DNA of 64,000 nucleotides from an uncultured Actinomycetes bacterium. Its GTDB lineage: Bacteria > Actinomycetota > UBA4738 > HRBIN12. Below are positions 4,036-53,444 of this stretch, piece after piece; position 1 is the first letter of the stretch, and each line of letters opens with the position of its first letter. Both the position numbers and the translations under genes were made by a program. The DNA lies in contig CAWGKU010000004.1 of assembly GCA_963823255.1 (NCBI GenBank), positions 35,112 through 99,111 of the forward strand, read 5' to 3'. The notes under the pieces are model-generated. The model was not told where the DNA came from and ran no database searches. It was given only the letters and a program-made list of their open reading frames with translations.

Positions 4036-4053
4036 GGCATGGCCGCCCCGAGT

Positions 4054-4649: not shown

Positions 4650-4651
4650 GC

Positions 4652-7106: not shown

Positions 7107-7233
7107 TCGAGGCTCTTGCTCGTTGGGTTCCGGACGAGGACCGAGCCGAGAATTGGAATCTGCCCTTCCCCGCTCGCTTCCGGCCACTCGTGAGTCCGGG
7201 GGTAACCACTCACGGTCGATCAGGCCTCGTGGA

Positions 7234-8359: not shown

Positions 8360-8535
8360 CGCTCCGATCCCTTCCGTCCGACGTGCCCACCGTTCCGGTC
8401 GGCTTCGACGCTAAGGGGAAGGGATCGGGCCGCAAACCTTGGAATCGGTACGTTAAACGCCCTTTGACCTCATGAAATGGGGGGGCCGCCCGGTTCTCGA
8501 GGCATCGAACGAATCCCCTCCGGCTCGAACGCCGC

Positions 8536-11313: not shown

Positions 11314-11548
11314 CACCGCTCCCGGTGTGTTCGCCAGCATTATGCAGGTCAGCGACCACAAGTCGCGATGGAGGGGTCCCGCCACCCAGCCATCTCCCGC
11401 ACCGATGAGCGGGGATCGTCACCACGCCCACCCGAGTGCCTGCCCGGAACTCGTGCGCGCCAAACGGATGGGCCAAGCGCCCTACTCGTCCGTACACCTG
11501 ACGATGTGGTCGACCGACCGCGTCGCCACGAGAGAAGGGAGAGCGTCG

Positions 11549-12118: not shown

Positions 12119-12175
12119 TGAACGTCCGAGAGCACCGTTCCATCCGGTGACGCAACACGAGATAGGGAGGTTCGT

Positions 12176-12634
12176 ATGCGAGGGATCAGAGCCACTTCAA
12201 GGATCGGAGTCATCCTCGTCACGGGGGGCCTGTTCGTTGCCCTGACGGGTGGCGCAGCGTTCGCAGCAGGGGGGAGCCCGAACGGCGCTGCGAGCCAACG
12301 GCCCGTCTTCTACGAGGGGAAGCAAGTCACCGTCAACATGTTCGAGGTGCCGTCGTCAGAGACGCTGCTCGATCACAACCGAAGCACCAACACGATCTAC
12401 GCCACGAACGACCTCGACGATGAGCAGGACTTCCTTTCGGTGATCGATGCCATCCAGGGTGAGGGGATGAACCCCCTGTGGCAGCAGGTCCTGATCGTCT
12501 TCAACGACGGATTCACTCCCCACCAGTTCACCTCCGAAGATGAGGTCCTGGCGGCTGCGGCCGGAGCCGATCCTGAGATCACGCTCGTCCCGACGGACGA
12601 GGTCTACCGCTGCTCGATCGTTCGAACGAAGTAG
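12176..12634 (+). CDS. Secreted hypothetical protein (signal peptide)
   Basis: RBS GGGAGG. Signal peptide MRGIRATSRIGVILVTGGLFVALTGGAAFAAGG. 152 aa. Confidence 0.6.
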   Translation: MRGIRATSRIGVILVTGGLFVALTGGAAFAAGGSPNGAASQRPVFYEGKQVTVNMFEVPSSETLLDHNRSTNTIYATNDLDDEQDFLSVIDAIQGEGMNPLWQQVLIVFNDGFTPHQFTSEDEVLAAAAGADPEITLVPTDEVYRCSIVRTK

Positions 12635-12640
12635 CAGGAT

Positions 12641-12694
12641 GACGGAGACAACCCGCCTCCAAGCCAGACCGCAGGAGGCGGGTTGTCTCCGTCA
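12641..12694 (+). terminator. Strong hairpin (perfect 20-bp stem, 14-nt loop) immediately after stop codon
   Basis: GACGGAGACAACCCGCCTCC...GGAGGCGGGTTGTCTCCGTC. No U-tract, so a GC-rich intrinsic-terminator-like element. Confidence 0.6.
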
Positions 12695-12900
12695 CCTTCG
12701 CTTGGTCCGTTGGACGAAGACGTGGAGCCGACTGCGCGATCAGACTGAACAAGAAGCAGATTCGCCCCCGGTGCCACCGTGGCTCGCCTAGCACCCGGTG
12801 ATCTTCATCACCCTCCCGATCGGAAGTCGCGCGTGCGTCCAGCCGTTGTGGAGGGGTAAGCACGCAGAATCCGAGCAAGACAAGCCGAAGGAGGTCCAGC

Positions 12901-13041
12901 ATGGATGATTCGAGCGGCATGCAGCGGCGCAGTGGTTGGACCTGGAAGGTCTGGGTCGGGATCCTGGTGGGCCTGGCGGTCGTGGCCGGGCTCGTCGTCC
13001 TCATCGCGAACGGCGGCGGTGGCTCGGGCGGCATCTACTGA
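12901..13041 (+). CDS. Small membrane protein (46 aa, one TM)
   Basis: Strong RBS GAAGGAGG 6 nt upstream. MDDSSGMQRRSGWTWKVWVGILVGLAVVAGLVVLIANGGGGSGGIY. Below the 60-aa cutoff of the ORF track. Confidence 0.5.
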   Translation: MDDSSGMQRRSGWTWKVWVGILVGLAVVAGLVVLIANGGGGSGGIY

Positions 13042-13213
13042 CGAACCCGTTCGAACCCGGATCCGTGTCGGCCGTGGGATCGGAAACCCCCACGGCCGTG
13101 CCGCACGGCGAAGCGGCGAGAGGTCACGGCCGCGGTTTCCAGGAAGGTGACGGATCCCGTCGGCAACCCTTCGACCCCGCTCGAACGGGACCTCAACTTG
13201 CGCACCTGGCCGG

Positions 13214-13405
13214 TTACGAACCCACCGGGACGATCCTGTACTTCTTCGCGGCGTTCAGCAGGCGTCTGCGCGCCCGCTCCTCGGCGGCGTCGTCTTCGAA
13301 CGCGACGCGATCGAACCTGGCGAGCGCGTTCCGGACATGCGCTTCGTCGTGGATCGGCACGCGGCGGTGACCCTGCGAGTCGCGGCGGTGACCCTGCGAG
13401 TCCAC
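13214..13405 (-). CDS. Small conserved actinobacterial protein with HVRNALARF motif (possibly DUF6582-like)
   Basis: C-terminal ...IHDEAHVRNALARFDRVAFEDDAAEERARRRLLNAAKKYRIV. The start is uncertain (GTG 13405 or 13360). Contains an in-frame 21-bp tandem duplication (DSQGHRR x2). Confidence 0.35.
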   Translation of the reverse strand: MDSQGHRRDSQGHRRVPIHDEAHVRNALARFDRVAFEDDAAEERARRRLLNAAKKYRIVPVGS

Positions 13406-13717
13406 GTACGCGAACGCACGGTCAGGGAGCCCGCCCGCTCTTTCTTGGTCAGCTCCGCCACGCCCGCCCCAACCTCCCTGCACCACCCGCGATTCCCGGG
13501 ATGGATCTCGCCGGAAACGCTCGCGAGACCGCCACGCTACTCCCGGGCGCAGACATCGAGGAAGGCGCACTGCGCCGCTGAACGTCGAACCGACGTGACG
13601 AATGTCACACGACCGGCTTGTGGGCCCGGCCGTACTACCACCAGGTACCGAGGCACGCTCCTGCGGAGGGAACGAGGAGTGGAAGAGCCTGCAGTTGAGA
13701 TGGAAGGAGGAAGAGTG

Positions 13718-14386
13718 ATGTCTGCACAACCTCGATGGGAACAGAGTGAGGAGCGCTTCCGCCCGGCCGAAGTGCCGGCACAGGGAACGCTCGCCGACCA
13801 GGATCGGAACGCGGCGGCTATCGTCACGGTGATCGCGATGGCCAGCATCGCCTCCGGTGCGATCAACATCGCGGCAGCTGCTTCGATCCCCGGCCTCAAC
13901 GGGCAGAGCCTGGCGTTCTTCTGGACGATCGGCGTCGCGCAGGTCGTGTGGGGTCTCGTGACGCTGGTCTGGGCTCCGCGATGGTGGCTCGCGCTCGGCG
14001 CCTTGGGCAACGCGGTCGTCGCGGCGACCTGGCTGGTGTCCAGGACGGTGGCGCTCCCGTTCGGCCAGTTCGCCCACGTCGTGCTGCCCGCTCGGTTCGC
14101 CGATGCCCTCGCCCAGATCCTTGCGGTAGTCGTCGTCATCGGTGCCGCGTGGCTCGCCGTTCGAGGCTCAGCCCCGGCTCGGTCCGCTTCACGGGTGCGC
14201 GGATTCGCGCTCGCGGCCGCCATCGTGATCGGCGCTTTGGGTGTCGCCGGCGTGATCTCGCAGGCCAATGCGTTCGCGTCGGGTAGCGGCGGAGGCGGCG
14301 GTCAGAACGGCCCGAACGCACCCTACGGCGGGGGCGGTGGAGGCGGTTACGGCGGCAGCGGTAGTGGTGGTGGCTACGGCTACTGA
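13718..14386 (+). CDS. Membrane protein (4 TM) with Gly/Tyr-rich C-terminal tail
   Basis: RBS GGAAGGAGG. MSAQPRW..., four hydrophobic helices, and a GSGGGGGQNGPNAPYGGGGGGGYGGSGSGGGYGY tail. Confidence 0.6.
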   Translation: MSAQPRWEQSEERFRPAEVPAQGTLADQDRNAAAIVTVIAMASIASGAINIAAAASIPGLNGQSLAFFWTIGVAQVVWGLVTLVWAPRWWLALGALGNAVVAATWLVSRTVALPFGQFAHVVLPARFADALAQILAVVVVIGAAWLAVRGSAPARSASRVRGFALAAAIVIGALGVAGVISQANAFASGSGGGGGQNGPNAPYGGGGGGGYGGSGSGGGYGY

Positions 14387-14543
14387 CGCCTCCCGCTCGA
14401 CAGAGAATGGTGGCTAGCGGCGCTCGGCCGGATCCGGCCGAGCGCCGCGCTGGCTACCCGCGCGATCGGTCCCGGCAACCCGTAGATCCTTTCGCAAGAC
14501 AGACGGTGCTCTACCCTTCGATCCAGCGATTGTTTCTCGATAG

Positions 14544-14565
14544 ACGGACACACGGTCCCCGCGGT
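14544..14565. repeat. Partial copy of the interspersed repeat core (GACGGACACACGGTCCCCGCGG)
   Basis: Shares ACACACGGTCCCC with 7085 and 55770. Lies in a lower-GC patch. Confidence 0.4.
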
Positions 14566-14794
14566 TCTGACTCGCGGTCCACATCTTCGACGAGAGCGTG
14601 TTTGTCACCTACCCAAAGATTCCTGGGTAGGTCTGAAACACAGGGTTGGTCCGCCCTTCTACCCCTCGGCATGCGATCGGTGACCGCCAGCTGAGTCGCG
14701 TGCTCGCCCGAGCGAGGCAACTCTGTTGCCTCGCTATCCGGACTTTCCTGCAGAGCTCCTAGTCGACTGAAAGGAACAACGGACACTCCGAGCA

Positions 14795-15175
14795 GTGCTC
14801 GTCGGCATGCTACAGGGAGAGCGATCGCTCCCTGGCAATGACGCGGGCCTCCATCTTGCCGAGCGTCCCCTCGATGTTGTCCCGAGTGACTCGGCATTCT
14901 CGGGGATCAGCGAACGGTCGAGCCTGGGCCAAGGAAGTGGGCATTACCCAATCCTTAGGTCGAAGGGTGGATACAGAGCCGCCTCAAATGTCCGACTCAG
15001 CCATGTCCTGTGCAATCAAGAGGATTGGAGCATCCGTGATCGAATATCGACAATGCTCGACGATGGCATGTCCCTCCAAGACATAGCGGACGCCCTGAAC
15101 CAAAGGAAGAGACGCGAGCCCTTCAACAGCATCCTTTGGACGCCAGTGATTGTGCGCACATCGCTGGTGTCCTGA
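14795..15175 (+). pseudogene. Possible serine-recombinase/resolvase C-terminal fragment (decayed)
   Basis: ...GMSLQDIADALNQRKRREPFNSILWTPVIVRTSL resembles the HTH/recombinase-domain tail of serine recombinases (xSLRxIAxxLNxxG...W.....V..IL). No catalytic N-terminal domain. Local GC is lower, ~58-60%. Confidence 0.25.
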
Positions 15176-15311
15176 TGGACTTCGGGCTGACCGGCGGGGT
15201 GAGCCCGCCGGACCCGAGGGCCGGCGGTCCGATGTCGTTCGAGACGTTCAAGCCGGCTCGCTTCGCCATGGGCGACACCGTCCGATACGCCGAGCGGGTC
15301 GGTTCGTCGAC

Positions 15312-15560
15312 ATGGAGCTGCGACCGGATCTCAGCCCCACACGGTTCACGCTGGCGAACGCGGACCTCGAATACCTGGCCCTGCAACCCGAACGCGGCGA
15401 TTTCACCGTCACCCTCGAGCCGGGCACGTACTCCGTCGAATGGTTCCGAGTCGACGGCCGAGAGACGGTCGAGTCCAAGGACGTGACGGTGGGCGCCGGG
15501 GGCCCGGTCCGCGTCCATCCGTCGCTCGACACCGAGCCTTCGGTTGTATTTGCGTTCCGC
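15312..15560 (+). CDS. Hypothetical small beta-rich protein (C-terminus unclear)
   Basis: MELRPDLSPTRFTLANADLEYLALQPERGDFTVTLEPGTYSVEWFRVDGRETVESKDVTVGAGGPVRVHPS has protein-like composition. The frame then runs into the ABC gene without a stop, so a possible indel. Confidence 0.2.
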
Positions 15561-15639
15561 GTAACGGCCCTGAGCGCGCTCGCTGCGTGGCGGCGACGGC
15601 GAGTCGAGAGACCACGCCGTCCCGCATCATGGATGGCTC

Positions 15640-17445
15640 ATGGAGACCGCCGAGGCCGACCGGACGGAACCGGCCCTCGCCGACGGAGGCGAGGGCCCGC
15701 GGGACCTGTTCGGCCGCGGCGTGCGCCTGGTGGTCTCGTACATCCGGATGCACCCGCGGCCGTTCGCGATCGCCGTGTTCGGGGCGTTCCTGTTCGCGAT
15801 CGGCTCCGTGGCGGTCACGGTCGCCCTCGGGTGGGTGACCGACCAGGTCCTGCGGCCGGCGTTCACGCCTGAAGGGGTGGACGCCTCCACCGTCTGGATC
15901 GGTATCGGCGCGGTGATGGGCCTGACCGCCCTACGGGCGCTGGGCATCGGGATCCGCCGCTACTACAGCGGCGTGACGGGGGCGGCCGTGGCCGCGACGC
16001 TGCGCGAGCGCGTCTCGGACCGATACCGCGACCTCGCGCTCTCCTACCACCGCACTCGGCCGACCGGCGAACTGCTCGCGCACATGGAGGCCGATGTCGA
16101 GGCGGCGATCGAGGTCCTCTACCCGGTCCCGTTCGCGATCGGCGTGATCTTCCTGGTCCTGTTCGCGCTCGTCTCGCTGGTGGAGACCGACCCCTTCCTC
16201 ACGCTGATCGGGCTTCTGACGGTGCCTGCGCTCGGTCTGATGAATCGCTCGTTCGCCCTGCAGATGCAGGCTCCGGCCCGGCGGGTCCAGGAGCGGATCG
16301 GCGAGGTGTCCGCCGTGGCGCACGAGTCAATCGACGGGGCGCTCGTCGTGAAGACGCTCGGGCGCGAGCGCGTCGAGGTAGGCCGCTTTCGCGAGAAGGC
16401 CGAGCAGCTGCGGACCGAGCGCGTCGCGGCCGGCTACATCCGCGCCTGGTTCGATGAGGCGCTCGAGGCACTCCCGACCCTGGCCGTGATCCTGATGCTC
16501 GCGATCGGTGCCTGGCGGGTCTCGACCGGCGATATCACGCTCGGGACCCTCGTGCAGGTCGTCACGCTGTTCGGCCTGCTCGCGTGGCCGATGCGCTTCG
16601 TCGGCTGGATCCTCTCGGAGCTTCCGCGGGCCGTCGTCGGCCACGGCCGCATCCTCGAAGTCCTCGAGCAGCCGGACACCATGACGCGGCCGGCTGAACC
16701 CATCTCGCTACCGCCCGGCCTGCTCGATGTCCGGGCCGAGTCACTCACGTACGGCTTCGCCGGCGCTTCCGTGCTCGACGCGGTGTCGTTCCACGTCGAG
16801 CCAAACGAGTCGGTCGCGATCGTGGGGGCCACGGGCGTCGGCAAGTCGACGCTCGCGCAGCTCCTGGTGCGCCTGGACGACCCGGCGGACGGTCGGATCC
16901 TGATCGGCGGCGTCGACATCCGTCAGGTCGACTCCGACGAGCTGCGCCGGGCCACGTCGCTCGTCTTCCAGGAGTCCTTCCTGTTCGCGACCACGGTGGC
17001 CGAGAACATCGCCCTCGACTCCGGCGCGACCCGGGACGAGACCGAGCGCGCCGCCGCGATCGCGCAGGCCGACCGCTTCATCCGAGCACTCCCCCAGGAC
17101 TACGACACCGTCCTTGGCGAGCGCGGGCACACGCTCTCCGGCGGCGAGCGGCAACGCGTGGCGCTGGCCCGCGCGCTGGTCCGGCAGCCCCGCGTGCTGA
17201 TCCTGGACGACGCCACGAGCGCCGTGGACCCGACGATCGAGGCGGAGATCCTGGCCGGCCTTCGGCGGGAGCTGGAGACCACGCTGATCGTCGTCGCGTA
17301 CCGCCTGTCCACGATCCGGCTCGCCGACCGTGTGCTCTTCCTGGAGGAAGGCCGCTTGCAGGCGACCGGCTCGCACGAGCAGCTGATGGCATCCCAGCCA
17401 GGCTACGCTGCGATGATCCGCGCGTACGAGCGGGGCGGGCGATGA
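15640..17445 (+). CDS. ABC exporter, fused permease/ATP-binding subunit (type I exporter, half-transporter 1)
   Basis: Six-TM N-terminal domain plus an NBD with Walker A GATGVGKST, signature LSGGERQRVALARAL and Walker B ILILDDATSAVD. Confidence 0.9.
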   Translation: METAEADRTEPALADGGEGPRDLFGRGVRLVVSYIRMHPRPFAIAVFGAFLFAIGSVAVTVALGWVTDQVLRPAFTPEGVDASTVWIGIGAVMGLTALRALGIGIRRYYSGVTGAAVAATLRERVSDRYRDLALSYHRTRPTGELLAHMEADVEAAIEVLYPVPFAIGVIFLVLFALVSLVETDPFLTLIGLLTVPALGLMNRSFALQMQAPARRVQERIGEVSAVAHESIDGALVVKTLGRERVEVGRFREKAEQLRTERVAAGYIRAWFDEALEALPTLAVILMLAIGAWRVSTGDITLGTLVQVVTLFGLLAWPMRFVGWILSELPRAVVGHGRILEVLEQPDTMTRPAEPISLPPGLLDVRAESLTYGFAGASVLDAVSFHVEPNESVAIVGATGVGKSTLAQLLVRLDDPADGRILIGGVDIRQVDSDELRRATSLVFQESFLFATTVAENIALDSGATRDETERAAAIAQADRFIRALPQDYDTVLGERGHTLSGGERQRVALARALVRQPRVLILDDATSAVDPTIEAEILAGLRRELETTLIVVAYRLSTIRLADRVLFLEEGRLQATGSHEQLMASQPGYAAMIRAYERGGR

Positions 17446-35959: not shown

Positions 35960-38272
35960 ATGGGGGATATCCGCCGAACGGATCGTCGGTGGGGCGGGTC
36001 GAGCGGCGGAGGCCGCCGACAACTCCCGCCGCTGGATGAGGGATCGGCGGAGCGATGGTCGAGCGAAGCGAACGGGACCGGGCGAGGAGCGACCGAGCCG
36101 CGCGGGGACGCGTCGGTCCCCATCGCGGTCGATCGGGTACCGCCGAGGCGGCAGCGCCGACCCACCGGAGCGCCGGCGCCGTTGCCGAAGACGATCGGCG
36201 TCACCGGGTGGCTCTGGGTGACGGCCGCGCTCGTCGTCGTGCTGCTGGGCTCGCTGTGGCTCTATCTCTCGCCGGGACCGCTCGACCGGTTCGACGCGGC
36301 GCTGATGCGTCCGATCGTCGCCCTCCGGACCGGGTGGCTGAACTCGCTCGCTCGCGGGGTGAACGCGATCGGCTCGACGTGGGGATTGGTCCTGCTCGGC
36401 CTCGTCACGATGGGGGTCACGGCGTACTTCCGGCGTTTCCGCCACCTCATCGTGTTCCTCGTGAGCCTGGCCGTGCTCCAGTTCGGGTCGGCGACGTTGA
36501 ACATCGTGTCGACGAGGGCTCGGCCGTTCAACGTGACGCAGATCGCCGGTTGGCAGGGATACTCGTCCCCCGCGCTCCCGATCGCTGCCCTCACGGCCCT
36601 GCTGATCGGCATCACGTTCATGCTCGTCGTCCCCGGCCGGCCGCGCTGGCGCGCGAAGGTCGCGACCGCTGCGATCGTCGCGACCGTGGGCGTCCTCCGG
36701 ATCTACCTCGGGGTCGAGCACCCGACGGACCTGGTCTTCGCGGCGATCCTCGGTGTGGCCATCCCGATAGCGTTGTTCCGCGCCTTCGTCCCCAACGACG
36801 CCTTCCCGGTCCGCTACGGCCCGCGCGGCAAGGCCGCCCATCTGGACGTGGGCGGTCGCCGGGGCGAGGCGATCCGGTTGGCGATGCAGGATCAGCTCGG
36901 GTTGACGATCCTCGAGACAAAGCTGGTGGGGCTCGAGGGGTCGGGCGGCTCGACGCCGCTGAAGCTCCGCGTCGTCGACGAGCAGGGCGTTGAGCGATCG
37001 GTGTTCGCGAAGCTCTACGCGAAGAACCACGTCCGCGCGGACCGCTGGTACAAGCTCGGTCGAACGATGCTCTACGGCGGCCTCGAGGACGAGACGCCGT
37101 TCCAGACCGTCCGGCGGTTCGTCGAGTACGAGGACTACACGCTGCGCCTGCTGGGCGAGTACGGCTTCCCAACGCCGGCACCCCTCGGCGTCGTCGAGAT
37201 CACCCCCGAGCGCGAGTACCTGATCGCGATGGAGTTCTTCGAGGACGCGCGCGAGATCGGGGAGGCGGAGGTCGACGACCAGGTCATCGAAGAGGGCCTC
37301 CAGCTCGTCCGGCGGTTGTGGGACGTCGGCCTCGCCCATCGGGACATCAAGCCCGCGAACCTGATGGTGCAGGACCGGCACCTCCGGCTGATCGACGTGT
37401 TCTTCGTGCAGGTCCGGCCCTCGCCGTGGCGCCAGGCCGTGGACCTCGCGAACATGATGCTGGTCCTCGGGCTGCGCTCGGACGCCGACACGGTGTATCA
37501 GATGGCCCTGCGGTACTTCTCACCCGAGGAGCTCGCCGAGGCGTTCGCGGCGGCCCGCGGCGTCGCGAGCCCGACCCAGCTACGGTCGATGATGAAGCGG
37601 GAGCGACCCGGGCTCCTCGACGAGTTCCGTGCGCTCGCGCCGGCCCGTCGGCCGATCGCGATCCAGCGGTGGAGCGCCCGTCGCGTCCTCCTGATCGTGC
37701 TCACGATCGTGGTCGTGGTCGTGGCGATCCCGAACACCGTGTCCCTGTTCTTCCCCGCTGCCCGGTCGCGCGGGCGGGGGCAGGTGCGCACGATCTCGAA
37801 CCGGATCGAGGGCACGGTCGGCGATCCGGGCGCCTGCGCGACGGATCGGACGGAGGTCCTGATGGCGCAGGCGGTGCCGTCGGCCAGCGAGCTGCCGTGC
37901 GTGGGGATCCTCCCCCTGGGGTGGACCGTCATCGGCGCCACGATCGTCGACGGCCGAGCGACGATCAGGATGGGCGTCGGGGCCGGAGGGGACGCGTTCG
38001 TCGTGCAGGCCGGGGAGCCCTCCGCGGTTCCGATCGTTGAGGTCACGCTCTCGAGGTCCTGCGATCCCGCCGAGCGGAGCGCCGCCACGCGGATCCTCGA
38101 CGTGCGTGGGGCGTGTATCGGGTACCGGTCCTCGGTCTCGCCGAACGCGGCGGTCGTTCCCACGTTCGATCCGGGCGGCGGGCTATCGCTCGTTCCGCGG
38201 TCGGCGCTGGTCGCCTTCGTCGAGCGTGACGAGGGGCTGAAGCTCTGCGGCGCGGGCGTTCCCTGCCCATGA
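35960..38272 (+). CDS. Fusion membrane protein: PAP2 phosphatase-like domain + protein-kinase-like (Kdo/RIO-type) domain + C-terminal TM and extracytoplasmic domain
   Basis: PAP2-like STRARP...RIYLGVEHPTDLV motifs in a multi-TM region. Kinase catalytic loop LAHRDIKPANLMV and DVF. A late TM (VLLIVLTIVVVVVAI). The N-terminal ~90 aa are Arg-rich, so the true start may be near 36200. Confidence 0.6.
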   Translation: MGDIRRTDRRWGGSSGGGRRQLPPLDEGSAERWSSEANGTGRGATEPRGDASVPIAVDRVPPRRQRRPTGAPAPLPKTIGVTGWLWVTAALVVVLLGSLWLYLSPGPLDRFDAALMRPIVALRTGWLNSLARGVNAIGSTWGLVLLGLVTMGVTAYFRRFRHLIVFLVSLAVLQFGSATLNIVSTRARPFNVTQIAGWQGYSSPALPIAALTALLIGITFMLVVPGRPRWRAKVATAAIVATVGVLRIYLGVEHPTDLVFAAILGVAIPIALFRAFVPNDAFPVRYGPRGKAAHLDVGGRRGEAIRLAMQDQLGLTILETKLVGLEGSGGSTPLKLRVVDEQGVERSVFAKLYAKNHVRADRWYKLGRTMLYGGLEDETPFQTVRRFVEYEDYTLRLLGEYGFPTPAPLGVVEITPEREYLIAMEFFEDAREIGEAEVDDQVIEEGLQLVRRLWDVGLAHRDIKPANLMVQDRHLRLIDVFFVQVRPSPWRQAVDLANMMLVLGLRSDADTVYQMALRYFSPEELAEAFAAARGVASPTQLRSMMKRERPGLLDEFRALAPARRPIAIQRWSARRVLLIVLTIVVVVVAIPNTVSLFFPAARSRGRGQVRTISNRIEGTVGDPGACATDRTEVLMAQAVPSASELPCVGILPLGWTVIGATIVDGRATIRMGVGAGGDAFVVQAGEPSAVPIVEVTLSRSCDPAERSAATRILDVRGACIGYRSSVSPNAAVVPTFDPGGGLSLVPRSALVAFVERDEGLKLCGAGVPCP

Positions 38273-42811: not shown

Positions 42812-45775
42812 TCACTTCGCGGCCTCAGTTGCCAGCGCGACCGCCTCCTCCAAGGACATGGCACCGCCCTCCGTGCGTAGACGTTGCGACTCCGCTTCGC
42901 CTAGAGCGCTCCCTAGCACCTCGATCACGTTTCGTTGGGCCTCCGCCCTCGGTCCTTGCGGATGCATCCCCACCTTCTCTTGCATGGCTGTCGCCGCACC
43001 GAGCAACAGAGCGGCGCGTTCGCTCTCACCGTTGTTGGCCAGCATGTGTGCAACACCGGTCAGGCCGAATGTCGTCTCCCACTCCGATCCCTGGGAGTGG
43101 GCGCCGCGGAGCCCGTTTCGAAACTCGCGTAGGGCGCCCGCGTAGTCCCTCTCGGCCTCACCCAGATGGCTCGCGAGGATGTACTGGCCCAAGACGGTCG
43201 CTTCCGGGGTCCCCTCCTCCTTCACGATCTCCAAGGCTTCGTCGACCGCTCGCTTCGCTCCATCGAGATCTCCCTCCATCCTCCGTCGATGAGCCAGTTG
43301 CCGGAGCCACACGATCTGCATCATCCGATTCCCGGTCTGTCGCAGCACTCCGACCATCTCTTCGAGCGCTGGGCCCGCATCGATGTCTTCGCTCACGTAC
43401 GACAGCCCTACCAAGACGTTCATAGCCATCCACCGCTCCCCGACCTGCTGCGAGAGATCCAACGCTTCTGCGTAGAGCTCACGCGCGCGGTCGTTGTCGC
43501 CCGCACGAACATGCAAACGGCCCAGCGCGTAGAGGAGGTAGATCTGGGAGACGGCATCTTCTGCCTTGCGCGCCACCTCGAGGCCCTCCTCGTAACGAGC
43601 GCGGGCTTCATCTCGATCGTCATCCGCCAACAGCCGACCGAGGACCTGCAGGGCGAAGGCGAGGTCGGCCGCGGCCCCATGAGCCCGACTCAGCTCAACC
43701 GCTTTGTTCGCCGAGTCGATCGCGGACGCCCGATCCCCCACGCGCTGCTCGATCACCGCTTCGAATCGAAGTCCTCGCGCCTCGGTTGGCTTGTCGTGTG
43801 CGCGGACGGCCGCGGCTAGGCCTTCGGTCACCATCGAACGCGCCGACTCGAGCTGGCCGCGATAGAAGGCGAGGAAGGACGCCGCGACCAGCGCGCGTCC
43901 GCGAAGTACGTCATCCGCGTCGGGGGCTCCAGCGAGCGCGTCTTCGAGCCAACCCAACCCTTCGGACCAGTGTCCCCGGACCTCCCAGAATCTCGAGAGC
44001 GCGGCACCGAGTCGGAGCCCGAGCGCGGGATCACCGTCGCCCAGGCTCCAAGCCAGAGCGGTTCGGAAGTTGTCGAGCTCCGATCCGATGCGGTCGAACC
44101 AGGGCGCTTGATCCGGTCCTCCGAGCATCGACTCGGCTCCGGTCTCGGCAAGGTCCGTGAACCACTCCGAGTGCTTGCTCCGGAACTTCTGCGCCTCAGA
44201 AGATGAGACGAGCTTGTCCAGCGCGTACTGGCGCGAGGTCTCCAGCAATCGAAATGCGGCACGGTCACCCGAGCGTTCTCTCATCACCCAGGATGTCGCC
44301 ACCAACCTTCGAAGGAGGGTCACCACCTCCGTACGATCGATCCCGTCGCCGACGCAGACCGCCTCGACATCCTCCAGTGAGAACGACCCCGACATCACCG
44401 ACAGCCTGCGCAACAGAACGCGCTCGGGTTCGGACAACAGGTCGTGACTCCACTCGACCGTCGCCAGGAGCGTCTGCTGCCGTCCCAGGTTGCGTCCGCC
44501 TCCGCCGGTCAGTAACCGGAACCGGTCGTCGAGCCGGGCGAGGATCTCTCCGACGCTCAACGTCCCGACCAAAGCAGCGGCCATCTCGATCGCCAACGGG
44601 ATCCCGTCGAGCCGGATGGTCAGGTGAGCGATCTCGGCGAGTTCCGTTTCGCCCCATTCGAACTCCGGCTCGTGACTCCTCGCCCGTTCGATGAAGAGTT
44701 GGACGGCCTCAGAGGTTTCGCCGGTATCGGTGTCCGAAGGGATCTGCAGACCTCCCACCCGGCGGATCACCTCGCCCGCGACACCGATCGGTTCCCGCGC
44801 AGTCACGAGGACCGTGAGGCCCGGGGCGGCCGAGAGCCACTTCTCCGTGAGCGCTGCGCAGGTCGGGATCAGGTGCTCGCAGTTATCCAGGATCACCAGA
44901 GGTCTCCCTGTCGACAGGAGATCGATCAAGGCGGAGTCGGCAGAGGCCCGGCTCTCTTGAACCCCCATCGCGTTCGCCGCAACCGAGAGAACGAGCTCCC
45001 GGTCGGAAACCGGCGCAAGGTCGACGAACCAGATCCCATCCGGTCGGACGGGGAAGGACGCGGAAGCTGCTTCGATAGCGAGGCGCGTCTTCCCGCAACC
45101 TCCCGGACCGGTCAACGTGACGAGCCGGGCGGTTTCCAAGAGCTCCGCGACCTCCGCCACGTCGCGGTCCCGGCCGATGAAACTCGAGATGGCCTTCGGC
45201 AGGTTGTGTCGTGCGCCGGGAGCGGTGCGTGGAGCGGGGAAGTCGCCCTGAAGGTCGGGGTGATGCAACTGGAACAGGTCTTGGGGCTCGGGGAAGTCCT
45301 TGAGCCGAAAGCGTCCTATCGGCTTCAGTGACACTTCCGGCGGCACCCGCTGTTCGGCCTGAGCTTGGACAGCCTTCGAGGTCAGGACCTGGCCTCCGTG
45401 CGCGGCGGCCGAGATACGCGCGGCCTGATGCACTGCGAGGCCGACGTAGTCATCGTCCTCGTCGATCGTGACTTCGCCGACGTGGATCCCCATCCGCACC
45501 CGCACGTGCGAGTCGGCGGGCCACGTGGCGTTGGCCAGCGCCAGTTGTCCGTCGATCGCACCGAGTATCGCCGACGAGGGATCGGCGAAGGTCACGAACA
45601 GGGCGTCTCCTTCACGTTGCAAGACCGTGCCGCCGTGAGCGGCGAATGCATCGCCGAGCACACGCCGGTGCTCGGCCAGGAGCGTCCGGTACTCGGCTCC
45701 CAGGGTTCTCAGGAGGTTCGTCGAACCCTCGATGTCGGTGAAGAGCAGAGAGAGCGTTTCGATTCGCTCGGCCAC
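42812..45775 (-). CDS. Class III adenylate/guanylate cyclase fused to NB-ARC/AAA (STAND) NTPase and TPR repeats
   Basis: GTG start at 45775 with GGAG overlapping the upstream stop. Cyclase domain (LSLLFTDIEGST...GIHVGEV). Walker A GPGGCGKTRLA. Long TPR-like C-terminus. Confidence 0.8.
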   Translation of the reverse strand: MAERIETLSLLFTDIEGSTNLLRTLGAEYRTLLAEHRRVLGDAFAAHGGTVLQREGDALFVTFADPSSAILGAIDGQLALANATWPADSHVRVRMGIHVGEVTIDEDDDYVGLAVHQAARISAAAHGGQVLTSKAVQAQAEQRVPPEVSLKPIGRFRLKDFPEPQDLFQLHHPDLQGDFPAPRTAPGARHNLPKAISSFIGRDRDVAEVAELLETARLVTLTGPGGCGKTRLAIEAASASFPVRPDGIWFVDLAPVSDRELVLSVAANAMGVQESRASADSALIDLLSTGRPLVILDNCEHLIPTCAALTEKWLSAAPGLTVLVTAREPIGVAGEVIRRVGGLQIPSDTDTGETSEAVQLFIERARSHEPEFEWGETELAEIAHLTIRLDGIPLAIEMAAALVGTLSVGEILARLDDRFRLLTGGGGRNLGRQQTLLATVEWSHDLLSEPERVLLRRLSVMSGSFSLEDVEAVCVGDGIDRTEVVTLLRRLVATSWVMRERSGDRAAFRLLETSRQYALDKLVSSSEAQKFRSKHSEWFTDLAETGAESMLGGPDQAPWFDRIGSELDNFRTALAWSLGDGDPALGLRLGAALSRFWEVRGHWSEGLGWLEDALAGAPDADDVLRGRALVAASFLAFYRGQLESARSMVTEGLAAAVRAHDKPTEARGLRFEAVIEQRVGDRASAIDSANKAVELSRAHGAAADLAFALQVLGRLLADDDRDEARARYEEGLEVARKAEDAVSQIYLLYALGRLHVRAGDNDRARELYAEALDLSQQVGERWMAMNVLVGLSYVSEDIDAGPALEEMVGVLRQTGNRMMQIVWLRQLAHRRRMEGDLDGAKRAVDEALEIVKEEGTPEATVLGQYILASHLGEAERDYAGALREFRNGLRGAHSQGSEWETTFGLTGVAHMLANNGESERAALLLGAATAMQEKVGMHPQGPRAEAQRNVIEVLGSALGEAESQRLRTEGGAMSLEEAVALATEAAK

Positions 45776-45783
45776 CGGGGCTC

Positions 45784-46158
45784 CTACGCGGTTCGGACGA
45801 AGCGGCGGACCACGTCCATCAGACCTTCGAGCTCGGGCGCCGTCGGGGGCAGCTCGTAGGAACCATGATGGCAGGCTCGCGACAACGCCCACCATGCCAG
45901 GTTCACCTCGTGCGCGGTCTCAGTGTCCTCGAGGTAGGACTGGAGACAGAGCAGCTGCACCCGAACCGGAGCGTGCCGTATACCTGGGACTTTTTCCGAG
46001 AGCGCCTCGTGCAGACCGACCTCGAGAGCCTGTCGCGCCAGGACCGCGGTCGCACGCGGCCACAGCCCGGCGGTCTCCGCGGTCGGATGGTTCAGGAGAC
46101 CCGTGGCCCGCTCGAGGATCTCGGCCGACGTCATCTCGCTGGATCCACTTATGCTCAT
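45784..46158 (-). CDS. Small helical protein (124 aa), possible HEPN-like; coupled to upstream Rad50-like ATPase
   Basis: Its start overlaps the ATPase stop (TGATG). It contains an Rx6H (RATGLLNH) segment. The stop lies 8 nt before the cyclase-STAND gene start. Confidence 0.5.
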   Translation of the reverse strand: MSISGSSEMTSAEILERATGLLNHPTAETAGLWPRATAVLARQALEVGLHEALSEKVPGIRHAPVRVQLLCLQSYLEDTETAHEVNLAWWALSRACHHGSYELPPTAPELEGLMDVVRRFVRTA

Positions 46159-48609
46159 CAGGGAAGTTGCACCAGTCCGCGGGCGAGCCTCTCGCTCTCC
46201 TTGACCAAGGTCAGCACGGCCGCCTGGCTCACCGGCTTGTGCGCCGCCTCCTGCACCCGCCGATAGGCTTCGACCGCCCACGCTCCGATCCCTCTGTCGA
46301 GCCGCGGGGCCAGGTCCTTGGTCTTGGTGATGTCGTCGAACAGGGCCAGTGCCATCAGCTCCGAAAGGCCCTTGGCGGAATCGAGGAGAGCCTCGATCGA
46401 CTCGTAGTCCTCGCCGTTGGCGAGCCTTCGCCGCGTGACCGCCTCGGTGCACGCGGCCTCCATCGCCAGACGGCAGAACACCCCCACGATACGAACCTTC
46501 ACCGCGGGATCGAGGTCCTCGCTCTTCGCCACCGCCCACGCGTCGTTGCAGTAGCGGCTGACCGGATCCTGACCGGGGCGCAGCTCGACCACCGACTCGG
46601 GCCTTCGAGTCACCTCGACGATCTTGGCGTCGATCCCCAACAGGCGGCACGAACGTGCAAGGCGCTCGTCGTGCGTGAAGACGACGACCTGGCGTGTTTG
46701 CGCCGCCCTCTCGAGCATGCGCGCCAGCCCATCGACCCGCGCCGGGTCCATCGACTGCACGGGGTCGTCGATGACCACGAAGCGGAACGGGCTCTCCGGG
46801 AGCGTCGCCCTCGGCATGAACAGACTGAGCGCGAGTGAGTTCAACTCCCCCTGACTCATGACCCCGAGCGCAGCGCCCTCCATCCCGTCGACGCTCACGT
46901 CGAGGACGACCTTCCGTGCCGATCCGGCACCGGTGAGCACGATCTTCTTCAGCAGCACGCTGCTTTGCATCCGGAGCATGTCCCAGACGCCCTGAGCCTG
47001 ATCGGCGATGGGAGCGAAGCGCTCGTTGCGTATGTCGTTGGAGGCAGCACGGATCCATTTCTCGGCGGCACTCAGGTCCTTCAGCACGTCCTCACCGCTG
47101 CGGGCTCGCTTCGCGGTGTCGAGCCATCCCGCGAGATCGGTTGCGATCGGACGCCAGACGTCCTCCCTTCGCTGAAGTTCCTTCGAGGCCGTCGCCTTCA
47201 GCCTCGTCACGCCCTCGGAGACCGGCTGAAGAGATGCCCGGAGATGCTGCGCGAGGGCCTCCGACTCCTCGATCGACGCGCCAGCCGACCACGCCTTCCA
47301 CGCGCCGATCACGTCTTCGACGTCCAGCCCGATCTCGGAGGCGCTCGACAGCACCGCGGGCACCGGCAACAGATGCGCTCGGGCGCTCTTGATCGACTCT
47401 TCCATCAACTGGTGGGCCAGGTCGACCTGCTCCGCCAGCTGACGGAGGCGGCCGAGCTCCTCCTCGGTCGCCGTGCGCCACTGGGCGTTGAGCGCTCCCT
47501 CTCCGCACACCGGGCAGCCCTGATCGCCGTGTCGTTCGTGGAACGCGAGCGCGGCCCCCAGGAGCTCTGCGGTCTGGCGCGCCTTGGCCGCCTCGGTGCC
47601 TCCCATCTCGCGAAGGGCGGACGCGGCGGCCTCGAGTCCGTCGGCGGCCGTCTTCACCTCATCGGCATCGGGCGGCTCCAAGACCGCGAGCTGTCGAAGC
47701 ACCGCGAGCTGACTCTCCTCTCGGTCGGCCTCCTCGGTTCCGATGACGGCCTTCTCCACCGCGTCGAGATCCCAGGTCTTGGCCGAAATTGCCTCGATGC
47801 ACACGCTCGCCCTCTCGTCTTCGACCATGGCGAGCCGTTCGAGGATCGGCGGCAGAGCCAGCTTCGCCTCGTCGGAGAGTTTCTTCCTCTGTTTGCTCGC
47901 TTCCTTGAGTCGAGCCTCAGCTTCGATCAGTTCCTCGAGACCCAGGATCGCGGAGAGGGCGTCATACAGAGCGGAAGGGCCGGCGTCGAGCATCGAGCCG
48001 AGCTCGCTGTAGGACAGGAAGGGGCGGTACATCTCGATCGCGCCCGCCCACCCCATCGTCTCCAGATCCGACTTCGTCGAACCCTGAGCTGAAACGATCG
48101 TATCGGCCTCCTCCAGCTTGGCGTCGGGCTTCCACTCCCTCGATACCACCGTCGTCCCCTTCGCCCCCTCGATGACGAACTCGGCATCGATGCGGGCGTC
48201 GGACTGGTGCAGGTTGCGCCATCCTTCCTTCCAGATGGCCGATCGGGTACTCCAACGGCTGTTGTCGCCGGTGAGCAGTAGCTCCAGTGCCTCGGCGAAA
48301 CTCGACTTGCCGCTTCCGTTGCGCCCGACGACGAGCGTGAGGCCTGGGCCGGTGGTGATCGGGAGCGACGCCGGATGGGCCAACGCCGCGAAAACCCCGC
48401 ACTTCGATCGATCGGATGTAGGCGGGATTCCGGGCAGAGGCCGCTTTGGCCTCAGCCTTCTTTGGGGATCTGGGGGCCTTACCCTCCAGCGTTACGTCGA
48501 GAGCATCGGCGCCGTGGCACGCCCCGATGACCAGGGCCCGGGTGCGCTCCGCCAGCTTGTCGTCGGCGTCTAGCCGCCCGAGGATGATGCCCTCGAGTAC
48601 GTCGTCCAT
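46158..48609 (-). CDS. Rad50/SbcC-like ABC ATPase with long coiled coil and CxxC zinc hook (apparent frameshift near 48400)
   Basis: The N-terminus ...NPAYIRSIEVRGFRGVGP (ORF 47962..48609) joins the 741-aa ORF. Walker A GRNGSGKSS, mid-protein GCPVCGEG zinc hook, signature-like MSQGELNSLALSLF, Walker B FVVIDDPVQSMD, H-loop VVVFTHDE. Confidence 0.7.
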
Positions 48610-50047: not shown

Positions 50048-50612
50048 CGATCCCCCTTCGCGGGCGCGCTAGTAGGGGCACGGACGCTACTACGTCGGTG
50101 ACTCCGGCGTGCGAGCCGGTCATCTCCCCCTCGAGGCGAACGCCTCCACTATTCGCGGCTGCGGCCCGACGAGGCGAACCTCGATGCTCCAGCGTGGGAT
50201 TCAGCGCGTCGCCGAGTTGGCCGCAAAGGCCGACGATCTCGTCGACGAGGCGATCGCGGTCGGGCACAGCCGTCCGATCCGCTCGTCGTCCACGCGCTCC
50301 GGCTGGAACTCCTCAAGGTGACGGCCGACCTCGAACGTGAACTCGGGACGTTTCTCGACACGCGGGTCCCGGCTCGCCACGGAGAGAGCAGCTTCCTGTC
50401 TCACCTGAAGAGCGACGGCGCGAGAGCCGCTCGATGGATCTATGAGCGGGTCTGGGGACCCGTCAATAGTCCGAATGGGTGATGGTCGGGTGGGCCGCGC
50501 CGTGCCGGTCCGTAGACCCATCGTGCGACATGACCGACGGCGCGCGCGATGGTACTTAATGCGTCTCCGAAGTCGAAGTGGTCTACGACGCCCACCAGGA
50601 GCCAACGGACCC

Positions 50613-51932
50613 ATGTCGATCATCGAACGTTCCGCCTCGCCACAGGCTCCGGCCGCCGGGTCGAAGCCGCGCGGCGGCCGGTTGCGCGTGATCACGGCGG
50701 GCAGCGTGGGCAACATGGAGGCTCGGCTCGGGACGAGTGGGTTCGACGTCGTCGCGGTCGCCGAGACGGAGGAGGCGCTGATCGATGCCGTGTCGGCGGA
50801 CGAGGCGGACGCGATCGTCGTCGAGGCCGACCTTTGCGACTCGCTCGAGCGCGTTCGAGATCTGGCACCCAATGCACTGCTCATCGTCATCGGCGATCAC
50901 ACGCCCGCCGGCGCGCTCGGTCGCATCGAGCCTGGTGTGTCAGGGACCGTGATGGCCGGGCTCCTGCACGCGCTGGTCGCCGAAGGCGTCGGGGGGGCCG
51001 TCGGGTGGGGGCTCGTGCCCGCGTTGGGACCGCGGGGCGTGCTGCAAGTTCCCCAGCGCATCAGCGGATGGCTGCTATCGGCCAAAGCGGATCTCGTCCG
51101 AGAGTACGTTGCGAACGCCTTTCGCGACCACGCGGAACTCCTTACCGCGGCGAGCACCGTCGCGGTGACCGTTTCCGCGAGCCTTGTGCTGACGCTGAGC
51201 GCAGCCCACACGCACGAACGTTCACACGAACGCTCGGAGCGCGTCCATGTTTCCGCGCCGGCCGTGGAGCGCGCGCCGCTGTATCCGGCCGTCGCTGTTT
51301 CCCCCACGACGCCAACACCCGCCTATGTTCCCTCCCAGAACGAGGGCGAGCCCGGCGACCGACGAGGGCTGAACCGCGGTGAGTCAGGAGCTGATGGTCG
51401 CCCAGTGGGCCAGGACGCCGACGATATGGGCCAGATCGAGAACGCTGGCGACGATCTGGGTCAGGTCGAGACCGCCGCCAACGATCTGGGCCAAGGCGAG
51501 AACGCCGGCGACGATCACGGCCAGGACGAGAACGCCGGCGCCGATCACGGCAAGAACGAGAACGCCGGCGACGATCACGGCCAGGGCGAGAACGCCGGCG
51601 ACGATCACGGGCAGGGCGAGAACGCCGGCGACGATCACGGCAAGAACGAGAACGCCGGCGACGATCACGGCAAGGGCGGCGACGATCAGGACGGCGACGT
51701 GAGCGAGGGTGACGACCAGGACGCTGGCGACCAGGACGGTGAGAACCAGGACGGTGAGAACCAGGACGGTGAGAACCAGGACGGTGAGAACCAGGACGGT
51801 GAGAACCAGGACGGTGAGAACCAGGACGGTGACGAGGAGGACGGTGACGACCAGGACGTCGCGGGGGATACAGCGACCGCCGCCGGGACCTCGGCGTCAA
51901 GTCCAGCGACTGGAGTCGCCCTGACCTACTAG
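50613..51932 (+). CDS. Receiver-like (pseudo-receiver) domain protein with long acidic low-complexity repeat tail
   Basis: N-terminus RLRVITAGSVGNMEARLGTSGFDVVAVAETEEALIDAVSADEADAIVVEADL is REC-like. The C-terminus has ~9 copies of (ENAGDDHGQG) and ~7 copies of (GENQD). Confidence 0.55.
   Translation: MSIIERSASPQAPAAGSKPRGGRLRVITAGSVGNMEARLGTSGFDVVAVAETEEALIDAVSADEADAIVVEADLCDSLERVRDLAPNALLIVIGDHTPAGALGRIEPGVSGTVMAGLLHALVAEGVGGAVGWGLVPALGPRGVLQVPQRISGWLLSAKADLVREYVANAFRDHAELLTAASTVAVTVSASLVLTLSAAHTHERSHERSERVHVSAPAVERAPLYPAVAVSPTTPTPAYVPSQNEGEPGDRRGLNRGESGADGRPVGQDADDMGQIENAGDDLGQVETAANDLGQGENAGDDHGQDENAGADHGKNENAGDDHGQGENAGDDHGQGENAGDDHGKNENAGDDHGKGGDDQDGDVSEGDDQDAGDQDGENQDGENQDGENQDGENQDGENQDGENQDGDEEDGDDQDVAGDTATAAGTSASSPATGVALTY
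51411..51684. repeat. 30-nt coding tandem repeat (~9 units, GACGATCACGGCCAGGGCGAGAACGCCGGC-like)
   Basis: Direct inspection. The units diverge at the edges. Confidence 0.8.
51733..51830. repeat. 15-nt coding tandem repeat (GACGGTGAGAACCAG x6-7)
   Basis: Direct inspection. Encodes DGENQ repeats. Confidence 0.85.
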
Positions 51933-52409: not shown

Positions 52410-53444
52410 CTGAGCGAGCGGGTCTGCCTCCGGTGTGACTGGACCGGCGAGACGGAAGCGGCCGTCTGTCCCAGGTGCGGGGCACCTCTATACGGACTCC
52501 CGGAACCGACGACTCCCCACGAGGTCACCCAAGCCCCCCACATGCAACGGCATCCGGCGGATGACCGCATGGACAGCTCGCCGATCGAGGCGGCCCGAGA
52601 CGAGAGCGTCCCACCTGCCGAGCCGGTCGCCGCCAGCAGGCGGTGGGCGGTGATCGTTGGTGCCCTCGCGGTGGCGGCGGTCTGGAACGTTGTGAGCCAC
52701 GGCCCGTTCGACCGCCTCCAGATGCCCGTCGTCCCGGGAGGGGCGCAGACAGGACCGACGGTCATCATGGGGTCGTTCTACCCCGAACAGGTGGGCGCCT
52801 CCGTTCTTCCACCCGAGGGGGCATCGCCGAGCGCTCCGGAGCGCGGAAAGCTCGTCGCGGGCAAGGAAGACATCTACGTCTACGCCGACGGGCGGATGAT
52901 CTGGGGTCGAGAGGGTTTGCCCGTCTGGCTCGAGCAACGCCTCACACCTGAGGGCGTCGAGCTCGTGCGTTCGGGTGCGGTACGGCTCGATGGTCAGTCC
53001 TTGGACCCCGGGTCGGCCCTGCCGGAAGGCGTGTTGGAGCCTCGGCTGATCGAGGCGTACGTCCCGTCAAGCTTCGCCGTCTGCCCCGGGCGCTGGCCTT
53101 GGAACACGGGATCGCCCGAACCGTCGTCCATCCTGGCCCATCTCCCGGTCCCGGCCCAGGCGTTGCTCCGAGGCAATGAACGGACGTACGACGCATCCGG
53201 GGGGGTGATCGGAGGCAACCCACCACGTCCATTCACATGCTTCGAGGTGACCACCGAGGAGGCTCGAGCACTCGACGGGATCTTCCGCGATGCGGGGATC
53301 GAACGGATCGACGAACTGGATAGCTCGACACCCTCGCAATGGGTCGTCTACGAGGTCAGGGCCACGGCCGCGATTCGCCGATCGTTCATCTCGATGATGC
53401 CGCTCCTCCCGCATGGAGAGTGGGGATTCTCGGACGCCGGATGA
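52410..53444 (+). CDS. Membrane-anchored hypothetical protein with N-terminal zinc-ribbon (start codon uncertain)
   Basis: The frame is open from 52392. CLRCDWTGETEAAVCPRCG lies upstream of the first ATG (52542). RBS GAGGAGG at 52397. One TM (WAVIVGALAVAAVWNVV), then a ~250-aa extracytoplasmic domain. Confidence 0.5.
   Translation: MSERVCLRCDWTGETEAAVCPRCGAPLYGLPEPTTPHEVTQAPHMQRHPADDRMDSSPIEAARDESVPPAEPVAASRRWAVIVGALAVAAVWNVVSHGPFDRLQMPVVPGGAQTGPTVIMGSFYPEQVGASVLPPEGASPSAPERGKLVAGKEDIYVYADGRMIWGREGLPVWLEQRLTPEGVELVRSGAVRLDGQSLDPGSALPEGVLEPRLIEAYVPSSFAVCPGRWPWNTGSPEPSSILAHLPVPAQALLRGNERTYDASGGVIGGNPPRPFTCFEVTTEEARALDGIFRDAGIERIDELDSSTPSQWVVYEVRATAAIRRSFISMMPLLPHGEWGFSDAG

Follow-up and report, generated by a model that had tools for sequence, protein, structure and literature searches.

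Organization of the locus

Three genes lie head-to-tail and closely packed on the minus strand, between positions 48609 and 42812 of a 64,000-nucleotide (nt) stretch of contig CAWGKU010000004.1 from an uncultured Actinomycetes bacterium (hereafter the window, meaning the whole stretch analysed). As listed in Table 1, the first gene encodes a Rad50-like zinc-hook ATPase of the ATP-binding cassette (ABC) type, the second a protein of 124 amino acids (aa) and the third a 987-aa protein with cyclase, STAND NTPase and tetratricopeptide repeat (TPR) regions. The robust result of this analysis is that the first two genes represent a widespread, unannotated RloC-like two-gene module with two HEPN-fold domains, one at the C-terminus of the ATPase and the other forming the small protein. 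The ATG of the small gene overlaps the TGA of the ATPase gene by one base (TGATGA), and 8 nt separate its TAG, which a GGAG overlaps, from the GTG of the 987-aa open reading frame (ORF). Both junctions agree with a preliminary description of this locus. The second gene is translationally coupled to the first, and the third is probably co-transcribed with the pair. A promoter and terminator scan of the operon returned nothing beyond the expectation from shuffled sequences.

The preliminary description presented the ATPase as a single protein of ~816 aa. Its motifs and the three genes exist, but the frames had been joined across a single extra base at position 48375. The span 48609..46158 comprises 2452 nt, a number not divisible by 3, and the ATPase is split in the window over two ORFs in different frames (47962..48609 and 46158..48383). 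The ORF that begins at the ATG at 48609 reads MDDV...IEVRGFRGVGPS and continues as nonsense beyond that; IEVRGFRG and the Walker A motif GRNGSGKSS thus stand in different frames, the protein from Walker A onward being read in the ORF 48383..46158. The extra base lies outside any homopolymer and is unique to the window, being missing from L090, L092, L001, L004 and L005 in DNA alignments. L090 matches the window at 99.77% identity over 6.1 kb, carries the same genes on its flanks and encodes an intact ATPase of 816 aa; intact 816-aa orthologues are also found in L001, L004 and L005. An assembly error at this position is plausible because a related long-read contig, L092 (ENA ERZ25039545 contig_36643, 96% identical), has many 1-nt indels in its coding sequence, which suggests that long-read metagenome assemblies of this kind are prone to indels; otherwise, the frameshift would be a very recent real inactivation. 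The ATPase copy in the window is therefore perhaps broken or mis-assembled. In L092 itself, the ATPase is called as a 724-aa protein plus a 52-aa fragment.

Table 1. Genes, motifs and domains of the locus, with positions in the window
Feature	Position	Strand	Remarks
ABC/Rad50-like zinc-hook ATPase gene, with C-terminal HEPN-like domain	46158..48609	-	816 aa after removal of one extra base
N-terminal extension before the ABC head	48421..48609	-	~63 aa; consensus MDxxLxxxVxxRLxAD...LVLAAL.G; L37 invariant
Single extra base	48375..48375		A on the + strand, T on the coding strand (GGCCCA[T]CCGGCG); frame shift between IEVRGFRGVGP and ASLPITTGPG
Walker A GRNGSGKSS	48300..48326	-	Invariant in 36 homologues
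Zinc hook CPVCG (CxxC)	47502..47516	-	Middle of helical insert; C365, P366, C368, G369 invariant
C-terminal half of ABC head	46668..46859	-	Signature, Walker B/D-loop and H-loop; all invariant in 36 homologues
Signature MSQGE	46845-46859	-	
Walker B/D-loop FVVIDDPVQSMD	46746-46781	-	
H-loop FTHD	46668-46679	-	
C-terminal HEPN-fold domain (tail)	46161..46580	-	~140 aa after the H-loop
Tail R713-x3-E717	46458-46475	-	Helix 2
Tail H790	46233-46250	-	End of penultimate helix
Small HEPN-fold gene	45784..46158	-	Stand-alone, 124 aa; ORF with start overlapping the ATPase stop
Small-protein R42-x3-E46	46021-46038	-	E46 within helix 33-53
Small-protein A95-C96-H97-H98 motif	45865-45876	-	
Cyclase-STAND-TPR gene	42812..45775	-	987 aa, GTG start; from ORF, Pfam and NCBIfam
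Parts of the third protein			Cyclase homology aa 2-156, STAND NTPase, winged helix, TPR sensor region

The zinc-hook ATPase and its C-terminal HEPN-fold domain

All of the ATPase motifs named in the preliminary description (IEVRGFRG, Walker A, CPVCG hook, signature, Walker B and H-loop) were found in the sequence. In an alignment of 36 homologues with identity down to 47% (alignment A3), the Walker A, the MSQGE signature, the Walker B/D-loop (DDPVQSMDP), the FTHD H-loop and the zinc-hook residues are invariant. The Walker B motif has the form hhhhDD (VVIDDP) instead of the usual hhhhDE; both Asp residues are invariant, and the position of the catalytic Glu is thus occupied by Asp. Among 2316 matches, the length of the ATPase is steady near 815 aa, and the position of the start codon is common to the window, L001, L004 and L005. 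The helical insert between the two head halves was estimated at ~330-350 aa from the Pfam head matches (residues 64-170 and 583-648), shorter than the ~450-aa coiled coil described previously; its coiled-coil character we infer.

Pfam assigns the 816-aa protein to SMC_N (5e-17), AAA_23 and AAA_21. The NCBIfam Rad50 model reaches 27.8 bits against a cut-off of 700, and the equivalog cut-offs for Rad50, SbcC and RecF are all far out of reach. In two Streptomyces plasmid copies of the gene, the ATPase is tagged by the NCBI annotation pipeline PGAP with a "double-strand break repair" Gene Ontology term.

After the H-loop, the protein continues with a helical domain that had been overlooked in the preliminary description. 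In an AlphaFold model of high confidence (predicted local distance difference test, pLDDT, 92), the last 153 aa adopt a HEPN fold. Its R713 and E717 are each conserved in 68 of 72 sequences and its H790 in 67 of 72, forming a triad R-x3-E-x72-H in which two extra helices intervene before the His; the RloC definition has X36-52 at this point. The ATPase alone has the complete RloC layout, including its own C-terminal HEPN-fold domain. Because the ATPase carries this HEPN tail, the small protein is an additional HEPN and not the split-off nuclease of an RloC, as had been proposed.

A stand-alone HEPN-fold protein encoded downstream

The small protein has a HEPN helical-bundle fold, as anticipated for this 124-aa product. 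A total of 534 close homologues were identified, and a full HMMER scan with the small protein recovered 1094 cluster representatives at 50% identity. The 150 homologues listed are without exception stand-alone proteins, nearly all of them ~105-165 aa long. Three residues are strongly conserved, namely R42 (82/85), E46 (78/85, with Asp in 6 more) and H97 (84/85), and S93 and Y101 are conserved as well. The resulting triad, R42-x3-E46-x50-H97, falls inside the RloC spacing of X36-52. The conserved acidic residue E46 lies in helix 2, and its closeness to the His would follow from the description of the HEPN family, where the helix-2 acidic residue adjoins the catalytic His and some families have the His without the canonical Arg (PMC3710099). 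The Rx6H segment pointed out previously (R17..H24) is not conserved, H24 being replaced by R, K, Q, E, S or T in relatives. Around the A95-C96-H97-H98 motif, the small protein reads CHHG in the window and CHHH in L006 and L007. Searches with Pfam (100 members, singly), NCBIfam (window and L001 copies) and PADLOC gave no match to the small protein except for two DUF4145 hits at noise level, and its profile returned only noise against PDB sequences.

The two HEPN domains were compared with each other. The two models agree in placing the R-x3-E within helix 2 and the His at the close of the penultimate helix. An hhalign comparison of the tail with the small-protein family aligned 104 columns (E 0.005), placing R-x3-E on R-x3-E and His on His. 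The nuclease signature of RloC and PrrC is Arg-X3-Glu-X36-52-His, and mutation of any residue of this triad abolishes the nuclease (PMC2610378). Judged by sequence, both triads of the pair appear to be of the kind that is catalytic in these anticodon nucleases.

Distribution and genomic context of the pair

When 185,579 species-representative genomes were scanned with the ATPase profile (alignment A3), at least 194 loci were confirmed; 80 of them were retained and analysed. In 79 of these 80 loci, a gene matching the small-protein hidden Markov model lies directly downstream of the ATPase gene, adjacent and on the same strand; the sole miss is a contig end. The expected co-localisation of the small protein with Rad50-like ATPases was thus observed, and 52 of the 79 loci offer a start codon by which the small gene would overlap the ATPase stop by 4 nt. 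The pair is distributed across Actinomycetota, Acidobacteriota, Chloroflexota, Dormibacterota, Gemmatimonadota, Myxococcota and Proteobacteria, with genera that include Nocardia, Streptomyces, Micromonospora, Kribbella and Mycolicibacterium.

Type I restriction-modification (R-M) or McrBC genes occur within 8 kb in 19 of the 80 loci, belonging to Streptomyces, Micromonospora, Nocardia, Kribbella, Actinacidiphila and a Mycobacteriales metagenome-assembled genome (MAG), which agrees with the defence context suggested earlier. Within the same distance, hsdM was found in 13 loci (with at least two type I R-M components in 10) and McrBC in 6. Additionally, L008 adjoins a type II R-M system and a PIN gene, and the pair is present on two Streptomyces plasmids. 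As the pair often stands beside restriction systems, it is probably an RloC-type anti-phage nuclease.

The flanking genes of the pair vary among relatives. A UvrD-like helicase of ~1190 aa follows the pair in six loci, comprising three Streptomyces chromosomes, one Actinoalloteichus and the two Streptomyces plasmids; among the genome loci, these are L068, L071, L074 and L080, and identity is 66-87% between L068, L071 and the two plasmids. This gene looks like another clade-specific "third gene". Elsewhere, the pair is followed by McrBC, DUF6119, a convergent GAF-SpoIIE gene or nothing. On the plasmids (L093, Streptomyces sp. M92 plasmid pM92, 1644-15345; L094, S. anthocyanicus plasmid, 3873-15341), DUF6119 and NB-ARC/TPR proteins were observed upstream of the pair and the UvrD-like ATPase, of 1185 aa, after it. 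The convergent GAF-SpoIIE (PP2C phosphatase) genes were seen right after the pair in two relatives of ~50% identity, L006 (10663-12612) and L007 (10829-12169), and L007 has an additional FHA-GAF-SpoIIE gene upstream.

In 16 Nocardia-type loci (L033-L075), large DUF5682 and SWIM-DUF5691 genes are located in divergent orientation ~1-7.5 kb upstream of the ATPase. Their proximity reflects either plain synteny or an unrecognised association, and PADLOC holds no model for either protein. Directly after the small gene of L029 (Pseudonocardia MAG, 10017-17189) and L018 (Acidimicrobiales MAG, 3086-9797), an operon was found that encodes NurA, a 630-aa protein, a Metallophos (SbcD-like) protein and an SbcC-like protein; the 630-aa protein has no Pfam match and is possibly HerA.

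The third gene

The 987-aa protein has the architecture described previously, with a class III cyclase-homology domain, a MalT/AfsR-like STAND NTPase and TPRs in the NCBIfam and Pfam layout. Guanylate_cyc (2.6e-8) scores above the Pfam cut-off and TPR_12 reaches 2.2e-11, and the matches to AAA_22, AAA_16, NB-ARC and nSTAND1 are weak, all below cut-off. Both Walker motifs of the STAND NTPase, A (GPGGCGKT) and B (VILDNCEH), are intact. Taking the canonical residues of class III cyclases as the reference, the 13 trio-linked relatives retain both metal-binding Asp residues and the Arg; the substrate-defining Lys is absent, with a variable residue at its position, and His invariably takes the place of the transition-state Asn. 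Because of these two changes, cyclase activity is doubtful.

Together with the pair, the third gene is confined to the window's own uncultured Actinomycetota clade. It was observed in metagenome loci L001-L005 and in L090-L092, the latter three having been retrieved via the cyclase protein itself, and a relative follows the pair in one of the 80 genome loci (L010, the same contig as L005). No cyclase-STAND-TPR match was obtained by phmmer (E<1e-5) within 8 kb of the pair in the other 79. Every relative that has the third gene keeps a spacing of 8-11 nt between it and the small gene, and within the clade the trio was seen with at least four different sets of neighbouring genes. The earlier view of the trio as a conserved syntenic unit does not hold beyond this clade; the third gene is a lineage-specific addition, and the functional unity of the trio is uncertain. 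That the cyclase-STAND protein serves as a sensor or amplifier is speculation. Pfam and PADLOC detected no cyclic-nucleotide-binding (cNMP-binding), CARF or SAVED domain in the pair, and the PADLOC matches of the third protein were limited to TPR, mad8, PycC (E 0.0017) and Cas3fv, all with weak E-values, and included no Avs model.

Elsewhere in the window, a second STAND-type regulator of 949 aa (8536-11385, minus strand; AAA_16, TPR and a LuxR-type GerE helix-turn-helix, HTH) was identified, which is unrelated to the trio. A 770-aa ORF (35960-38272, plus strand) has a GC content at third codon positions of 0.91 and weak PAP2 and protein-kinase/RIO matches below the Pfam cut-offs. Upstream of the trio are two putative ORFs on the plus strand, of 496 aa (50442-51932) and 300 aa (52542-53444), with no Pfam match.

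Comparison with known systems

RloC is the closest known system in layout, size, triad and occasional R-M linkage. It joins a Rad50-like zinc-hook ABC ATPase to a HEPN anticodon nuclease in one polypeptide (Davidov & Kaufmann 2008, PMC2610378). Both proteins are ~800 aa long and combine an ABC head with a CxxC-bearing coiled-coil insert and, at the C-terminus, a helical domain of nuclease type, in which the R-x3-E lies near residue 700 (R692/E696 in RloC, R713/E717 in the window ATPase) with a His downstream. In contrast to RloC, the pair includes an obligate second HEPN gene downstream, none having been described for RloC; its tail His stands 72 residues past the Glu instead of 36-52, and the family scores under the cut-off of AAA_13 (PF13166). 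In the 2008 RloC census, actinobacterial RloCs were recorded only in Mycobacterium, Brevibacterium and Corynebacterium, with other lengths (PMC2610378). RloC is a wobble-nucleotide-excising tRNase, and a tRNase activity of the pair is a possibility by analogy.

PrrC resembles the pair as an ABC ATPase that regulates a HEPN-type nuclease with an R-x3-E...His triad, and 13 of the 80 loci of the family adjoin hsdM/R/S genes. PrrC itself lacks the coiled coil, the zinc hook and a separate HEPN partner, and is embedded in a type I R-M locus, whereas the window locus has no R-M genes nearby. Lamassu/ABC-3C systems consist of the effector LmuA, which has a conserved C-terminal domain, the middle component LmuC and the SMC/Rad50-like ATPase LmuB. 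They likewise combine an ATPase of Rad50 descent, in some cases with a CxxC, with a small helical protein and a third protein that varies, and the PADLOC LmuB models match the ATPase at 1e-19 and 1e-16, over generic ABC regions only. However, lmuC precedes lmuB in Lamassu and the small gene follows the ATPase here; the small protein has a HEPN fold that is neither HTH-like nor like the SbcD C-terminal domain, and the ATPase bears its own effector-like tail with no LmuA-type protein. Lamassu/ABC-3C membership was rejected on gene order, small-protein fold and the absence of LmuA.

Several other candidates were also rejected. MADS MAD3 reaches 16.9 bits against an NCBIfam cut-off of 420. Pycsar membership fails on the weak PycC match, the altered cyclase site and the lack of cNMP-binding, CARF or SAVED domains in the pair. 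The cyclase-NTPase-TPR order of the third protein resembles the effector-NTPase-sensor logic of antiviral STANDs (Avs), but no PADLOC Avs model matches, and Avs membership was rejected in spite of the STAND and TPR architecture. The third gene also resembles actinobacterial cyclase-STAND proteins, namely the cyclase-ATPase fusions of the Rv0386 type. From both groups, it differs in its non-canonical cyclase residues and in being tied to the pair in one clade only. SbcCD/Rad50-Mre11 membership was rejected on the Rad50 score and the absence of an adjacent Metallophos gene in the window.

A literature search found no described two-gene system of an ABC/zinc-hook ATPase with a HEPN protein, the 2020 ABC-ATPase classification of Krishnan et al., which might list this clade, lying outside the search.

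Proposed mechanism and alternative explanations

HEPN RNases require dimerisation and are commonly kept inactive by partner proteins (PMC3710099, PMC8266594). Because they act as dimers, a heterodimer of the tail and the small protein is the simplest reading. The small HEPN and the ATPase tail would associate 1:1 to form a heterodimeric HEPN RNase site, which the ATPase/zinc-hook part would hold off. This site would be released when the ATPase senses danger at the DNA level, either DNA ends or a failing restriction system, and the outcome would be cleavage of RNA, possibly tRNA, and abortive infection. We give a probability of roughly 55% to the reading that the functional core of the locus is an RloC-like two-gene module, composed of an ATPase with its own HEPN domain and a translationally coupled second HEPN, that would work as such a triggered heterodimeric RNase in defence. 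The RNase activity and the defence role of the pair are somewhat favoured on present evidence, to the same degree.

Several observations weigh against this reading. Neither HEPN domain has a regular Rx4-6H motif: no Arg lies 5-7 residues before H97 of the small protein, and R94, three residues ahead of that His, is variable; in the tail, 47 of 72 sequences have the motif, and only in the form (R/K)x6H. The tail His is gone in a subclade (P0198, P0200, P0208, P0210, P0213, P0217, P0222, P0226 and P0235) that includes L006 and L007, which may mark a move of catalysis to the small subunit. The hhalign probability between the two domains is low (7%). AAA_13, the PrrC/RloC family of Pfam, reaches 27.2 bits on the ATPase against a cut-off of 36, aligning only at profile positions 498-575 (signature and Walker B) and leaving the tail unmatched, and neither the tail nor the small protein is matched by any PADLOC model. 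In 61 of the 80 loci, type I R-M and McrBC genes are absent within 8 kb. In Nocardia, the locus is syntenic (16 loci in 16 species) and resembles a stable chromosomal gene more than a mobile island. The neighbours of the trio in the window are ordinary metabolic genes (PD40 propeller, YCII, RidA, transporters and an aminotransferase), and no significant match was found in a viral fold library or a phage genome collection.

Some of these observations are shared with the view that the pair is a DNA-maintenance or repair complex of the SMC/Rad50 type, in which the HEPN folds act as non-catalytic binders of proteins or nucleic acids. HEPN domains that lack Rx4-6H are known as such binders (PMC3710099), and this view would also accommodate the Rad50/SbcC-type head and zinc hook, the UvrD-like helicases that are common neighbours of the pair, the stable synteny across Nocardia and the NurA/630-aa/Metallophos/SbcC-like operon directly downstream in L029 and L018. 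The operon, however, adjoins only 2 of the 80 loci, and it shows a separate SbcCD-like pair in those genomes. Together with the missing SbcD partner, this coexistence led us to reject a housekeeping SbcC, in agreement with the preliminary description, which had argued against one from the lack of an adjacent SbcD/Mre11 gene; among the window genes, no Metallophos gene was found beside the pair. A repair role is further opposed by the strong conservation of R, E and His in both HEPN domains at the positions catalytic in RloC/PrrC, by the restriction systems near 19 loci, by the presence of the pair on plasmids, by the variable flanks between close relatives and by the equivalog cut-offs missed by far, and it is considered unlikely. 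Equally improbable is a toxin-antitoxin-like arrangement in which one HEPN inhibits the other, for instance with the small HEPN capping the tail and blocking its homodimerisation until ATP is hydrolysed. The strict adjacency of the two genes and the available 4-nt overlaps would suit it, as would the need of HEPN RNases for dimers and their common inhibition by partners (PMC3710099, PMC8266594), and the subclade that has lost the tail His has a small protein with HHH, which fits one domain being the real enzyme. Most genomes nevertheless carry the same triad in both domains, which is unexpected for a pure inhibitor.

A further possibility is that all three genes form one defence system, in which the TPR-STAND protein would sense a phage product and oligomerise, and a nucleotide signal made by its N-terminal cyclase domain, or depletion of nucleoside triphosphates by that domain, would switch on the HEPN complex. 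The trio is kept together at ~67% (ATPase), 70% (small protein) and 61% (cyclase protein) identity across its different flanking contexts, with the short gap maintained and with the STAND Walker motifs and both metal-binding Asp residues of the cyclase intact. On the other hand, the third gene is missing from 79 of the 80 pair loci; other clades have different third genes (the UvrD-like helicase of 1190 aa, McrBC or DUF6119) or none; neither HEPN protein has a recognisable nucleotide-sensor domain (CARF, SAVED or cNMP-binding); and the substrate Lys is missing with His in place of Asn in 13 of 13 relatives, so that activity is doubtful. PADLOC gives only the weak PycC match and no Avs. That the trio acts as one system is considered as unlikely as the repair and toxin-antitoxin readings. 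A combined account, which we regard as quite improbable, would keep the pair as a zinc-hook machine with a fused and a free HEPN subunit that converts sensing of DNA ends or restriction into RNA cleavage; the lineage of the window would then have added the cyclase-STAND-TPR protein, with a cyclase product controlling a HEPN nuclease devoid of CARF and SAVED domains. The RloC-like two-gene module is the reading that we retain, and the pair is probably an RloC/PrrC-related form not previously annotated, for which RNase activity and a role in defence are predicted.

Significance

RloC and PrrC are textbook examples of ABC ATPases that restrain a suicide RNase. If the proposed reading is true, the pair would be a two-gene version of this principle, with two HEPN subunits. 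Soil Actinomycetota, among them Streptomyces, Nocardia and Micromonospora, commonly carry it, and it is also present in several poorly studied phyla. As Pfam, NCBIfam and PADLOC are blind to the small protein and the tail, annotators of defence systems are expected to miss it. The clear set of predicted catalytic residues in the two HEPN domains would offer a way into how a Rad50-type zinc hook gates an RNase.

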